Positions 18,911 to 25,053 of a DNA stretch of 31,859 bases are shown here, piece by piece. This stretch comes from an uncultured archaeon (GTDB taxonomy: Archaea; Asgardarchaeota; Heimdallarchaeia; Heimdallarchaeales; Kariarchaeaceae). The translations under genes were made by a program, and so were the position numbers. The notes under the pieces are model-generated. The model saw only the letters and a list, made by a program, of their open reading frames with translations. It ran no database searches and was not told where the DNA came from. The DNA is taken from assembly GCA_964645535.1 (NCBI GenBank), contig CAZYCQ010000037.1, positions 1 to 31,859 of the forward strand, read 5' to 3'. The stretch's first letter is position 1; each line of letters begins with the position of its first letter.

Positions 18911-19756
18911 ATGGGCACAGCTTCCTCAGATAATGATCTCATGGACGTCTTACGGGACATCAGTTCAAAGTTTGATCTCATCACTGATAGATTGGACAAT
19001 CTTGACGGGAGGGTCAACGAGATTACCAAAAGCATTGATCAGGATCTCAAGTTAAATTATCTTAATTCTGTCGTCCGTTTCCTTGAACGTGAGGCTATCG
19101 ACCTGATCAATACCATGTCATGTAGTTATAAGCCCGAAACGGAAATCCACTGTAAGTCTTGGGTTACTCTGAACATCAAAGGATATTTGGACAATCTCTC
19201 CATGGGAAATCTGACTGGTGCCTATGTAATGCTGAAACAATTCTTGGGGCAAGTCAAGAAAAATTCATTGGATGTCGAAAAAAACATTCATTGCCGAAGC
19301 GAATGGCTCCAATTACTGGACACCTTGGAAAACCATCTTGACTTCATTCAGGAAATTTCGACATTATTCGTGCCTAAGCATCTTGCTAATTCGTTGGATG
19401 AGGGGGATTTTGATCCGGATTTTGTTAGCGATATGTTTGTAGTACCTCTTTCACATCCTCTCAGAATAAAGATTATTCATTCGCTTATGAATTCGAGTAA
19501 GCGGTTTACGGCCCTGAAAAAGGAATTGGATATCAAGAATACCGGATTGCTTGTCCACCATATGAAACCTCTTACTGATGCTGGATTTGTTACACAAAAC
19601 TACAAGAAGGAATATCTTCTGACTGAAAGAGGTCATCTGATTGCCCGGTTCCTTTCTCAGATCGATGCAAGTCTCCGACCCAATAGTTCCTTGAGTTTGG
19701 AGAGTCCTGTAATCAGTAACCTCAATGTCACTGAATTAAAGGTAATCAATGACTGA
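18911..19756 (+). CDS. Transcriptional regulator with C-terminal ArsR-like winged HTH and helical Cys-containing N-terminus
   Basis: PLSHPLRIKIIHSL...RFTALKKEL...LLVHHMKPLTDAGFV...YLLTERG. Confidence 0.8.
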   Translation: MGTASSDNDLMDVLRDISSKFDLITDRLDNLDGRVNEITKSIDQDLKLNYLNSVVRFLEREAIDLINTMSCSYKPETEIHCKSWVTLNIKGYLDNLSMGNLTGAYVMLKQFLGQVKKNSLDVEKNIHCRSEWLQLLDTLENHLDFIQEISTLFVPKHLANSLDEGDFDPDFVSDMFVVPLSHPLRIKIIHSLMNSSKRFTALKKELDIKNTGLLVHHMKPLTDAGFVTQNYKKEYLLTERGHLIARFLSQIDASLRPNSSLSLESPVISNLNVTELKVIND

Positions 19757-19790: not shown

Positions 19791-21080
19791 TTGTCCCTGA
19801 AATGCCAGTTTATGGAATTTTCATCTCGAATTCAGGGTTTCCACAAGCTTTCCCAAGAGGAACGAATCAACAAAATCAAGGAACTCTGCCAATTATCGCA
19901 AGACGACGTAGATGTTCTTCTTGTCAAAACTCCTGCTTTGGATCTTTTTGATAGGATGATTGAGAACAACATTGGCGTCATGCAGGTTCCGATCGGTGTT
20001 GCTACTAACTTCATCATTGACGGAAAGGAACGTCTGGTAACCATGGCTGTTGAGGAAGCAAGTGTCGTTGCCGCTGCTTCTAATGCAGCTCGAATGACTC
20101 GACCCCATGGAGGCTTCTTTACATCATCAACCGGATCTCATATGATCGGTCAAATACAGGTACTTGATGTAACTGCACCAGAATTTGCAGCTCAGGAGGT
20201 TCTTTCCAACAAGCAGAAGATTCTGGATCTTGCAAATGAACAGGATCCGATTCTTGTGAAATTTGGTGGTGGTGCCGTTGATCTTGAGACACGAATTATC
20301 GGCTCTGCAATTGGAGATATGCTTGTGATCCATCTGATTGTGAACACACTGGATGCCATGGGCGCAAATGCAGTCAACACAATGGCAGAGGCTGTTGCTC
20401 CATTGATTGAGGAAATTACCGGTGGTAATGTGAGGCTGAGAATACTGAGCAATCTCGCTGATAGACGCATCGTTAGGGCAAGAGCCATATTTGACAAGGA
20501 ACTTCTTGGTGGGGATGATGTCGTGGACGGAATCATTGAGGCTTGGGCTTTTGCCGATGCGGATCCATATCGGGCAGCAACCCATAACAAGGGTATCATG
20601 AATGCCATTTCCGCCATTACTCTGGCAACTGCAAATGATTGGAGGGCAATTGAGGCTGGTGCTCATGCATATGCTGCACGCAATGGCTATTACGGTTCAC
20701 TTACCACATATGAAATCACGGATGATGGGCATCTTGCCGGCACCATCGAATTGCCCTTGGCACTTGGAACCATTGGTGGAGCAACAAAGATCCATCCCAC
20801 TGCCCAAGTCAATCTAAAGATCATGGGTGTAACTGGTGCACAAGATTTGGCTTCGATTGTTGCATCTGTAGGACTTGCCCAAAATCTTGCCGCGTTACGT
20901 GCTCTGGCAACTGAAGGTATCCAAAAGGGCCACATGAAACTCCATGCCCGAAATTTGGCCGCCCAAGCTGGTGCAGTTGGGGATGAAGTGGATCTTGTTG
21001 CCAAAAAGATGGTCGAGGAAGGAAAAGTTCGAGCCGATCGAGCAGCCGAGATTTTGGAAGAAATCCGAAAGCAGGCCTAA
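19791..21080 (+). CDS. mvaA: Class II hydroxymethylglutaryl-CoA reductase
   Basis: MIENNIG, EEASVVAAAS, DAMGANAVNT, RILSNL, RAATHNKGIMN, GLAQNLAALRAL, GIQKGHMKLH. The ATG at 19812 is a likely start. Confidence 0.95.
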   Translation: MSLKCQFMEFSSRIQGFHKLSQEERINKIKELCQLSQDDVDVLLVKTPALDLFDRMIENNIGVMQVPIGVATNFIIDGKERLVTMAVEEASVVAAASNAARMTRPHGGFFTSSTGSHMIGQIQVLDVTAPEFAAQEVLSNKQKILDLANEQDPILVKFGGGAVDLETRIIGSAIGDMLVIHLIVNTLDAMGANAVNTMAEAVAPLIEEITGGNVRLRILSNLADRRIVRARAIFDKELLGGDDVVDGIIEAWAFADADPYRAATHNKGIMNAISAITLATANDWRAIEAGAHAYAARNGYYGSLTTYEITDDGHLAGTIELPLALGTIGGATKIHPTAQVNLKIMGVTGAQDLASIVASVGLAQNLAALRALATEGIQKGHMKLHARNLAAQAGAVGDEVDLVAKKMVEEGKVRADRAAEILEEIRKQA

Positions 21081-21691
21081 CGCTCGTTTTCTCTAACTAA
21101 TCTGCCCACTACAAGATATCTATTCTGATTGAGGGGGAGCTCTCTTACCTTGTTGTTGACATATTTTATGAATTTATTGCATTTATAGGGTCTATGAATA
21201 ATGGAAAGGGTTCCAAATCCAAATGGAAGGAAAATGTAACTGTCTGGTGGTTTATAATAGGTTACAATACCTCCACATTCCTGTTTCCAATTTGGAGTCA
21301 AATCCAGACAAAATTCTAGGTAATCGCCTCTTTGTGTTTCTTCATGCATGATCGTATAGTCCTTCCATCCCAGTTTAAGGATCTGTCCTTTTACATCTAT
21401 GATATGTTCCTTTGTGATTTCCCCAATAAGATCCTTGAACTCAATTGATTTGAGGAATCCTCGTAACCTTGGGGTCATTCTTGCCTTCAGGAGATTGTAT
21501 TTGATTGGATTTCTTTCCCTGACATAGTTTGCCTCTGCAACTTCTTCAAAAAGTTTCTTTGCGAATTCTCCTTTCAGAAAATTGACCATTGAAAAGCTAG
21601 GAAGCACATCATATTCAAAAAAATGCTTTTGCAAGGTTTTTATTGCCTCATCTTCAAAGTATGCGGAATTGATATACTCACTCTGCTGCAT
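21077..21691 (-). CDS. Degenerate 2OG-Fe(II) oxygenase-fold protein resembling the OGFOD1/Tpa1/Ofd1 C-terminal domain
   Basis: YINSAY...NFL, YTIMHEE, WKQECGGIVTY, LSIIHR...KFIKYVN. The distal iron-binding His is absent. Overlaps the upstream paralog by 14 nt, with GGGTGG before the ATG. Confidence 0.75.
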   Translation of the reverse strand: MQQSEYINSAYFEDEAIKTLQKHFFEYDVLPSFSMVNFLKGEFAKKLFEEVAEANYVRERNPIKYNLLKARMTPRLRGFLKSIEFKDLIGEITKEHIIDVKGQILKLGWKDYTIMHEETQRGDYLEFCLDLTPNWKQECGGIVTYYKPPDSYIFLPFGFGTLSIIHRPYKCNKFIKYVNNKVRELPLNQNRYLVVGRLVRENER

Positions 21692-22313
21692 GGAACCACC
21701 CTGTTAATGTCGCTCGAAATGTCTCTCCAACCACTTCATCCACTTCATGAAATGAGTGGGGGGTTACCTCAAAAAAGACAAACTTATTGAATTCAGGTCT
21801 AATGCTTTTCACGATTCTGGCCGGTCTATCTCCTACACAATCAAAAAAATTCAAGGTTCCACCTTCTTTTTGCTCTAGATCTGAAAGATAGATGATAAAT
21901 GCAATTTTTCGCCCAGGGATTTGGTCATCATGACAAAGGAGATAATCCGTATCTGAATAGAGATTGGCAGTTAAATCAACTTTATTCCTTTTCAGTCTCA
22001 AACCGGAGACGGTTTCCATCCAAATCATAAAGTCTTCCGACATAAGAAATTTCTTGAAATCTCGAAGAAACTTCGAATTTGAATTTTCTAGGTCATCGGT
22101 TTGCAGGAATTGAAACAAGTCAGAATCCTTTCGTTCAAAGTGTTCATCTTGCAGTGCATCGATTACTTCTAGAAGGATGTTTTCATGAAAGAAGTTATCA
22201 ATCTCTAGATGCTTGAATGGAGAAGCCTCCTTAAAATCCTCATGAAGTTTTTGCATTGCGCCCTCATTGAGGTATTCTTTATTGACAAACTCATCGAGGA
22301 TTTTCCCTTCCAT
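21678..22313 (-). CDS. 2OG-Fe(II) oxygenase resembling the OGFOD1/Tpa1 catalytic domain
   Basis: SPFKHLEIDNFF, DLFQFLQTDDL, LLCHDD...RKIAFIIYL, GGTLNFF, FNKFVFFEVTPHSFHEVDEV, RATLTGWFH. HxD...H triad and 2OG-binding Arg intact. Confidence 0.9.
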   Translation of the reverse strand: MEGKILDEFVNKEYLNEGAMQKLHEDFKEASPFKHLEIDNFFHENILLEVIDALQDEHFERKDSDLFQFLQTDDLENSNSKFLRDFKKFLMSEDFMIWMETVSGLRLKRNKVDLTANLYSDTDYLLCHDDQIPGRKIAFIIYLSDLEQKEGGTLNFFDCVGDRPARIVKSIRPEFNKFVFFEVTPHSFHEVDEVVGETFRATLTGWFHAAE

Positions 22314-22388
22314 TTATGTCTCCTTCATTTGGGGACTACAAAAGGTTTCTCCCCGACAATTGGCTGGGATAAAGCTAATCTATTTTAA

Positions 22389-24279: not shown

Positions 24280-25053
24280 ATGTCTGAAGAGGTACCGAAA
24301 CCAGACCCAAATGTTCCTAGCGCTGAGGCGCTCAATAAGGAAATTGAAGAGCTGAAATCCAAACTTTCTGCTGCAGAAAGCCAAATTGCAGAAAAAGATG
24401 CTAAAATAGCTGAATTAGAAGCCAAGGTCGGAGAGCTCGAATCTGCTAAAGCTAAAATCTCTGAACTTGAAAGTAAAGTCTCTTCTCTTGAATCTGCCCT
24501 CCAAGAAAAGGATGCAAAGATTGCTGAACTGGAAACCAAGGCAAATGCAGCAGAATCTGATGCCCAGAAACTTGCTGAATTGCAGGCACGCCTTCAAGAA
24601 CTTGAGACATCTGCCAAGGAAAAGGATGCAAAGGTTTCAGATCTTGAAGGCAAACTTTCCTCTGTAGAGAGTCGAGCAAAGGAGATGGAACAGAAAACTG
24701 CTGAAATGCAATCTCAAGTTGAAGAATTCAAAAAAGAAATAGAGGCTAAAGAAAGTGAACTCCGTGAGAAGGATGCCAAGATCCAAGAACTTTCCGAGAT
24801 TGCAGAACGTGCAAAGGCAACAGAAGGATCTGCCCAAGAACTGAAAGTGCTCCGTGTGCTTGCCAAGATATCCGATGTCTATGATATCTGGACAGTGCTC
24901 AATGACCAAAAACGTATTTCTGTCAGAAAATTGGCCATGCAGGCAGGCAGGAATATCAATTCCGTTCAAGAAATGGTCGAGGGTCTTGAGAAAGCAGGTT
25001 TAGTAAAATTTGAAGACAGTGATGAAGGAACTCTTGTTGTAATCGTCGAATGA
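24280..25053 (+). CDS. Repetitive coiled-coil protein with C-terminal winged-helix-like domain
   Basis: Recurring EKDAKI/VxE/DL units in heptads over about 170 aa, then ISVRKLAMQAGRNINSVQEMVEGLEKAGLVKF. Confidence 0.8.
   Translation: MSEEVPKPDPNVPSAEALNKEIEELKSKLSAAESQIAEKDAKIAELEAKVGELESAKAKISELESKVSSLESALQEKDAKIAELETKANAAESDAQKLAELQARLQELETSAKEKDAKVSDLEGKLSSVESRAKEMEQKTAEMQSQVEEFKKEIEAKESELREKDAKIQELSEIAERAKATEGSAQELKVLRVLAKISDVYDIWTVLNDQKRISVRKLAMQAGRNINSVQEMVEGLEKAGLVKFEDSDEGTLVVIVE

Follow-up and report, generated by a model that had tools for sequence, protein, structure and literature searches.

A contig of 31,859 nt from an uncultured archaeon of the Heimdallarchaeial family Kariarchaeaceae (CAZYCQ010000037.1, assembly GCA_964645535.1; its full length is hereafter the window) carries on its minus strand two overlapping genes that very probably encode a split, heterodimeric member of the OGFOD1 family of prolyl hydroxylases. 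Judged by its sequence, gene 1 (P0001, 22313..21678, 211 aa, stop codon TGA) is the orthologue of the N-terminal catalytic domain of OGFOD1, Tpa1 and Ofd1 and a predicted Fe(II)/2-oxoglutarate (2OG) oxygenase, and gene 2 (P0002, 21691..21077, 204 aa) is on the same grounds a non-catalytic double-stranded beta-helix (DSBH), orthologous to the C-terminal domain of those enzymes. Human OGFOD1, S. cerevisiae Tpa1, S. pombe Ofd1 (PDB 4nhx, 3kt7 and 6e0t, respectively) and Drosophila Sudestada1 are prolyl 3-hydroxylases of the ribosomal protein uS12. The archaeal pair has both domains of OGFOD1, Tpa1 and Ofd1 in one-to-one orthology, but as two polypeptides rather than as one chain with a linker of about 30 residues, and in a prokaryotic host, whereas the OGFOD1 subfamily has been said to be exclusive to eukaryotes (Horita et al. 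2015; PMC4396695). The whole reading, a split OGFOD1-type heterodimeric hydroxylase with uS12 as its substrate, is given a probability of about 55 per cent.

The two reading frames share 14 nt (21678..21691, minus strand), a stretch that holds both the TGA of gene 1 and the ATG of gene 2, and gene 2 is read in the +1 frame. Each gene is preceded by its own Shine–Dalgarno-like motif: AGGAG (22324..22320, minus strand) precedes the ATG of gene 1 by 6 nt, and GGGTGG (21701..21696, minus strand) precedes that of gene 2 by 4 nt and falls within the last part of gene 1. A preliminary description of the window, made from the letters and their open reading frames, had proposed exactly this arrangement of two overlapping tandem genes with a motif each, and the coordinates of the frames agree with it in full.

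Profile, fold and phylogeny all bear out the same description's assignment of gene 1 to the N-terminal catalytic domain of OGFOD1 and Tpa1. The hidden Markov model search that it had proposed for this gene returned the Pfam profile 2OG-FeII_Oxy_4 at 1.9e-28, and a phmmer search of PDB sequences matched gene 1 to the N-terminal domain of human OGFOD1 (4nhx residues 77–259) with an E value of 8e-38 and to yeast Tpa1 with 7e-19. AlphaFold2 models of both genes were built on small alignments; that of gene 1 has a predicted local distance difference test score (pLDDT) of 89.2, and its top Foldseek matches are OGFOD1 and Tpa1 (E 2e-19, template-modelling (TM) score 0.86–0.90, with 0.86 for OGFOD1, and 34 per cent identity). 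The single-domain prolyl hydroxylases of the EF-Tu and hypoxia-inducible factor (HIF) types are weaker matches, at 1e-9 and a TM score of about 0.6–0.7. The host metagenome-assembled genome (MAG) has one 2OG-FeII_Oxy_4 gene in total.

The active site of gene 1, of the HxD...H plus RxS/T type, is intact as in OGFOD1, Tpa1 and Ofd1. The metal ligands H128 and D130 (codons H128-D129-D130, 21924..21932, minus strand) correspond to OGFOD1 H155 and D157, while the distal metal ligand H189 and R200, the ligand of the 2OG C5-carboxylate in an RxT motif (codons H189 to R200, 21714..21749, minus strand), correspond to OGFOD1 H218 and R230 (PMC4396695). All four are invariant in the 37 N-terminal domains compared, and the motifs first read from the gene, LLCHDD (with H128 and D130), FHEV (with H189), R200 and GWFH, are present. 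Mutation of L95 and Y96 in the short beta4–beta5 hairpin of OGFOD1, or of L152 or R162, lowers uS12 hydroxylation in yeast, and Y169 and R230 are 2OG ligands (PMC4396695). The equivalents of the four mutated positions in gene 1 (L66, F67, L125 and R135) are invariant in all 14 prokaryotic gene 1 proteins, and Y142, the equivalent of Y169, is kept in 12 of the 14; the groove residues of OGFOD1 are therefore conserved, with phenylalanine in gene 1 at the position of Y96. An L152Y variant of OGFOD1 was built to bring the enzyme closer to the HIF prolyl hydroxylases (Horita et al. 2015; PMC4396695), and at this position gene 1 keeps the leucine of the OGFOD1 type (L125) and not the tyrosine of the PHD-like variant.

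Gene 2 had been taken for the inactive C-terminal domain, and here too profile, fold and phylogeny agree. It scores 51.4 bits against the Pfam profile Ofd1_CTDD (PF10637), above the cut-off of 27 and in line with the check that had been suggested. Among PDB sequences it matches the C-terminal domain of OGFOD1 (chain residues 457–542; phmmer E 3e-7) and the C-domain of Ofd1 (1e-3). Its AlphaFold2 model (pLDDT 91.6) has as top Foldseek match the isolated C-terminal domain of Ofd1 (6e0t, 1e-11), followed by Tpa1 and OGFOD1. The similarity noticed earlier between the N-termini of the two genes is seen also at the level of profiles, in that residues 4–131 of gene 1 match the start of Ofd1_CTDD with 30.5 bits.

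The motifs quoted from gene 2 (YTIMHEE, ECGGIVTY and FIKYVN) were found, and the distal histidine is absent, as claimed. In the 15 split partners of the C-type the first metal-binding histidine is kept in 7, the acidic ligand position is variable, and the distal-histidine position holds lysine, arginine or tyrosine in every case (lysine or arginine in gene 2). That position is never histidine in 22 fused, eukaryotic C-domains either, of which 17 have the lysine or arginine state. Given that the metal-ligand positions are lost or variable and that the distal position is lysine, arginine or tyrosine, gene 2 is read as a dead paralogue of the C-domain type. Like the C-domains of OGFOD1, Tpa1 and Ofd1 it has no metal site and shows the lysine or arginine together with features of the KYVN type; unlike those of animals and yeast it is compact, with neither acidic nor other insertions. 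The FxKYVN motif (codons F174-I-K-Y-V-N179, 21155..21172, minus strand) forms part of the predicted contact with gene 1, and its residues F174, K176, Y177, V178 and N179 are invariant across the 15 split partners.

The two products probably form a heterodimer, as a controlled co-fold and a conserved predicted interface suggest. When the two genes were co-folded, the ipSAE interface score was 0.86 (0.88, 0.86 and 0.86 in the single runs), whereas the best of three controls scored 0.00. The runs had at least 97 per cent of their contacts in common, and the pLDDT of the partners was at least 91. At calibration 58 of 80 solved complexes attained this mark, as did 2 of 110 mismatched pairs. On the side of gene 1 the predicted contacts involve residues 65–68 (the beta4–beta5 hairpin), 121–129 (strand II) and 188–196 (strand VII), and on the side of gene 2 residues 110–115 and 174–181, so that strands II and VII take part in both proteins. 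In OGFOD1 the N- and C-terminal domains pack minor sheet to minor sheet with an additional contact by the hairpin (PMC4396695), and the model of the pair predicts the same packing, with the beta4–beta5 hairpin again at the interface. Conservation is higher at the predicted interface than elsewhere in both proteins (0.71 vs 0.54 in gene 1, p 0.006; 0.65 vs 0.41 in gene 2, p 3e-4), and 5 of the 9 invariant residues of gene 2 (G140, F174, K176, Y177 and N179) lie within it. The structural comparison with OGFOD1 that had been proposed for the pair speaks, at the level of prediction, for the suggested heterodimer. Because the two genes are the halves of a two-domain protein whose structure has been solved, the co-fold is to be read as likeness rather than as proof of binding.

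The two-gene layout is a general property of the prokaryotic forms. Twenty prokaryotic loci were inspected, and in all of them gene 1 comes before gene 2; in five related genomes, and in 14 loci from a scan of the genomes of 185,579 species, a gene 1 of 190–230 aa always has a gene 2 of 175–220 aa directly after it. These loci are labelled Heimdallarchaeota, Kariarchaeota, Woesearchaeota and Nanoarchaeia, with three small 'Methanosarcinales' MAGs and one bacterium of the candidate phyla radiation (CPR). The same order in 20 independent loci, and as adjacent pairs of matches in 75 genomes of DPANN archaea (Diapherotrites, Parvarchaeota, Aenigmarchaeota, Nanoarchaeota and Nanohaloarchaeota), is far beyond what chance would give and upholds the claim that the enzyme is unfused. 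An exhaustive profile search for relatives of gene 2 returned 1603 representatives at 50 per cent identity, 279 of them at E <= 1e-30, and nearly all of the best 150 of these 1603 matches are standalone proteins of 170–210 aa. One metagenomic representative (P0147, 1004 aa) has about ten partial N- and C-domain profile matches, two C-domain ends included, and may be a tandem multi-copy form or a mis-called fusion of several pairs.

A joint tree of N- and C-domains places every gene 1 with the eukaryotic N-domains and every gene 2 with the eukaryotic C-domains, each with a Shimodaira–Hasegawa-like approximate likelihood ratio (SH-aLRT) support of 100. Since each half of this tree holds both prokaryotic and eukaryotic members at 100, the duplication that gave rise to the N- and C-domains is older than the separation between split and fused forms. 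Rooting each half of the joint tree by its paralogue gave an unresolved polytomy at the base of both. A careful concatenated tree comprised 37 taxa and 393 columns, after removal of the fused P0170, P0177, P0185 and P0182 (very long or half-empty C-domains), near-duplicates and fragments; eukaryotic sampling in the trees is thin. The N-domain, C-domain and concatenated trees all part a fused clan from a split clan (concatenated support 100/99). Within the split clan of the concatenated tree a Woesearchaeote branches first, and the Asgard copies (81/50) are sister to the other DPANN and CPR copies, in a joint group supported at 97/97. In all of the trees the Woesearchaeote or other DPANN copies thus stand between the Asgard copies and the eukaryotes (concatenated 97/97, C-domain 99, N-domain 90). 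An approximately unbiased (AU) test of a topology that unites Asgard and fused forms in one clan did not reject it (delta lnL 7.56, p 0.199).

The distribution of the pair is uneven. It occurs in 6 of 400 sampled genomes of the Asgard phylum, all from two genera of a single family (2 of 85 genera), and in 5 of 11 genomes of that family, the genome of the window not counted. The DPANN phylum to which a Woesearchaeote carrier belongs has it in 75 of 401 genomes sampled, typically as two adjacent matches. DPANN archaea are the main carriers of the pair; in Asgard archaea it is rare, and the copies there were most likely acquired horizontally or else kept through massive loss. The CPR bacteria were considered as a second home and rejected: 1 of 401 sampled genomes of the phylum is positive, and this is the seed genome itself (L022, Yanofskybacteria), in which the pair lies on a 5.7-kb contig, as might result from sporadic transfer or from a mis-binned DPANN contig. 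No relative was found among the viral contigs searched. Three loci titled 'uncultured Methanosarcinales archaeon' (L013, L015 and L024, binchicken MAGs) have DPANN-like pairs, one of them in a genome of about 1.1 Mb (G404), and their label is probably a placeholder or wrong. A search of the literature found no paper that links the OGFOD1/Tpa1/Ofd1 family to Asgard or DPANN archaea; automated pipelines already label gene 1 'Tpa1-like' (JGI names), and what is new here is the analysis and not the sequences.

Fused forms are eukaryotic and come from animals, from the fungi Basidiobolus, Rozella, Smittium and Zancudomyces, and from protist transcriptomes, with P0077 as the sole exception. This fused N+C protein is compact, at 426 aa, and is encoded at L038:6001-7281 (plus strand) on a Logan contig of SRR6202010. 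Its surroundings are dense and intron-free, with a G+C content of 40 per cent and no Shine–Dalgarno motifs, and its neighbours are of bacterial type (radical SAM, ArsB/CitMHS, AhpC, pyruvate kinase and acyl-CoA dehydrogenase). In the tree its grouping is with a protist sequence, though weakly, and it may come from a prokaryote that has OGFOD1 in fused form.

Given that the two frames of the window lie one base apart across a 14-nt overlap, and that the frame of gene 2 is open for just 4 codons upstream of its own ATG, it might be asked whether the split is real at all, or the result of a sequencing or assembly frameshift in a fused gene or of programmed frameshifting that yields a fused protein. 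However, the layout recurs in separately assembled loci and across the DPANN genomes, and each gene has a start codon and a Shine–Dalgarno-like motif of its own. The junction is also variable: 14 of the 15 distinct loci, the window among them, have an overlap of 8–20 nt, one has a 43-nt gap instead, and the +1 frame of gene 2 holds for 14 of 15 loci, with the other offset in one. When the overlap of the window was read for a shift site, neither an X XXY YYZ slippery heptamer nor an RF2-like site was found. The conserved layout, the varied junctions and the standalone relatives make either form of frameshift very unlikely, and both were dismissed. The split OGFOD1-type enzyme is thus retained, and the more serious doubt concerns its substrate. 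By orthology uS12 stands a somewhat better than even chance of being the target, and the ribosomal oxygenase or O2 sensor of the preliminary description would, on the same ground, be a reasonable reading. Host uS12 has KQPNSALRKCVRVQLIKNGK, with a KQPNSA proline loop; this hardly differs from the segment of human RPS23 that surrounds the target residue, Pro62. Several points weigh against the reading. A uS12 substrate would follow from orthology alone, and as far as is known the PNSA proline loop is universal, which makes its presence in the host non-discriminating. The co-fold may have passed through memory of the solved OGFOD1 and Tpa1 structures. The neighbours of the pair are unrelated metabolic genes, and its patchy distribution indicates a dispensable function. 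Between the window and two related genomes (L005 and L006) identity is 59–63 per cent for gene 1 and 30–42 per cent for gene 2, as against 83–89 per cent for the flanking HMG-CoA reductase and aconitase genes, and evolution so much faster than that of syntenic neighbours is unusual for a core ribosome modifier. It is conceivable, if rather unlikely, that the same heterodimeric oxygenase acts on something else, be it another protein (such as a translation factor), a nucleic acid, a small molecule or a peptide. 2OG oxygenases often shift substrates, and among related prolyl hydroxylases those with a single domain have EF-Tu or HIF as their target; the rapid evolution, the patchy distribution and the lack of adjoining ribosomal genes in the window would fit such a shift. 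There is also a weak match to the NCBIfam model of the YhhC cyclophane-peptide oxygenase (NF041706), but its 38.7 bits are far below the equivalog cut-off of 150, no precursor-peptide or biosynthetic genes adjoin the pair in the window, and this identity was rejected. Against another substrate speak also the far better sequence and fold matches to OGFOD1 and Tpa1 than to other hydroxylases, and the invariance in gene 1 of the groove residues that matter for uS12 in OGFOD1, including L125, the equivalent of L152 (PMC4396695).

The origin of the pair is a separate matter, on which the preliminary description had gone furthest in suggesting a pre-fusion ancestor of the eukaryotic enzyme. One may suppose that the Asgard pair was inherited vertically and that both genes passed from the archaeal host to eukaryotes, in which they became fused. 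The host of the window is in fact a Heimdall-group Asgard archaeon, the N/C duplication is older than the divergence of split and fused forms, and the locus has the G+C content of the rest of the window, with no compositional anomaly. The locus is moreover syntenic within the genus of the window, and thus was inherited vertically within that genus. However, the pair is confined to 6 of 400 Asgard genomes and is found in 75 of 401 of the DPANN phylum, the N-domain, C-domain and concatenated trees place the Woesearchaeote or other DPANN copies between the Asgard copies and the eukaryotes, and the thin eukaryotic sampling is a further weakness. This scenario is therefore distinctly doubtful, as is its wider form, in which O2-dependent prolyl hydroxylation of the ribosomal decoding centre arose not in eukaryotes but in archaea, as a two-subunit enzyme; the archaeal host would have handed on to eukaryotes, where the genes fused, a version whose surviving vertical line is the Heimdall-group pair. 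The part of the earlier suggestion that concerned Asgard ancestry is accordingly weakened by the rarity in Asgard genomes and the DPANN-nested best tree, although the AU test (delta lnL 7.6, p 0.199) still allows it; the data neither favour nor exclude a direct Heimdall line of descent. The reverse course, in which a fused eukaryotic gene was transferred to a prokaryote, split once and spread among DPANN and a few Asgard archaea, is also unlikely. Such a single split would fit the uniform +1 junction of 14 of the 15 loci, the clear separation of split and fused clans (100/99) with an unresolved root, and the compact P0077, fused in a bacterial-like context and weakly grouped with a protist. 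On the other hand, the great diversity of the split clan (1603 representatives at 50 per cent identity, 279 at E <= 1e-30) and the wide occurrence of the pair in one archaeal phylum suggest considerable age, and the trees give the direction of change no polarity.

Several known systems help to place the pair of active gene 1 and dead gene 2. The Pseudomonas hydroxylase PPHD, which acts on EF-Tu (PDB 4j25 and 4iw3), and PHD2/EGLN1 share with gene 1 the DSBH prolyl-hydroxylase fold and the Fe and 2OG ligands, and PPHD, too, is prokaryotic and acts on the translation apparatus. Unlike the split pair, however, neither has an inactive partner domain, and both have a long mobile finger loop where gene 1, in the manner of OGFOD1, has a short rigid hairpin. 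YcfD/RoxA, NO66 and MINA53, of the JmjC type and known from bacteria and eukaryotes, are also 2OG oxygenases that hydroxylate ribosomal proteins, but they belong to a different subfamily, modify arginine or histidine residues of large-subunit targets, and gave neither a sequence match nor a top fold match to the pair.

In the window the pair is flanked by a convergent HMG-CoA reductase gene and by divergent genes for the large and small subunits of an aconitase-family enzyme, and no ribosomal gene adjoins it. A sigma-70 promoter scan of the locus found nothing, the sigma-70 model being not appropriate for archaea. In the second Asgard carrier genus (g3; L017:505-1569 and L018:14-943) the pair lies downstream of a gene of the pelota/aRF1 family with eRF1_1/2/3 domains and upstream of a PP-loop ATPase gene that is Ncs6-like, of the tRNA-thiolation type; this neighbourhood, which the pair of the window does not have, is a mild hint towards translation. 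A search for an Nro1/Ett1 partner gave no match, and control genomes were equally silent, so that this result is uninformative. Next to the uS12 gene on another contig (G000, contig C9) lies a gene (L025:1837-2466, minus strand) for a 209-aa protein with sub-threshold matches to ubiquitin-conjugating/UEV (22.6 bits) and Mod_r/Vps37 (18 bits) profiles, possibly an Asgard protein similar to ESCRT-I (endosomal sorting complex required for transport). Two predicted DNA-binding proteins flank the wider region: one at 24280-25053 (plus strand) with a long coiled coil (DUF7310) and a winged-helix end of the HVO_A0114/MarR-like type, and one on the other side at 18911-19756 (plus strand) with a DUF7347 winged-helix domain.

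The host MAG (3.6 Mb, 89 per cent complete) has two haem-copper oxidase subunit I (COX1) genes, which makes the use of O2 by the host plausible; cytochrome bd was not found in this 89 per cent complete genome. In the proposed mechanism, a translationally coupled operon would encode both halves of a tandem DSBH hydroxylase as separate polypeptides, of which gene 1 would be the working oxygenase, dependent on Fe(II), 2OG and O2, and gene 2 its catalytically dead paralogue of the same fold. Gene 2 would bind gene 1 through the minor sheets of the two, in the way that the C-domain packs within the eukaryotic enzyme, and would probably stabilise the enzyme or aid its docking on the target. By orthology the enzyme would most likely act on uS12, at the conserved decoding-centre proline in its KQPNSA loop, and hydroxylation there would render the fidelity or termination of translation sensitive to O2, Fe and 2OG. 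The split and fused forms would have diverged from each other after the N/C duplication.

The split pair is a complete prokaryotic counterpart of the eukaryotic enzyme, in which separate genes encode the active and the dead domain, and it has more than 1000 metagenomic representatives. It offers a natural experiment on the C-domain, whose function in the eukaryotic enzyme is unclear, in that each subunit can be expressed alone or together with its partner. The origin of the tandem enzyme likewise becomes testable: with an N/C duplication older than the parting of split from fused forms, the choice lies between a fusion of two genes in eukaryotes and the splitting of one in prokaryotes. In what would be a new layer of translation control, DPANN archaea, with their genomes of 0.7–1.8 Mb, and some aerobic archaea of the Heimdall group may tune translation with O2, Fe and 2OG.

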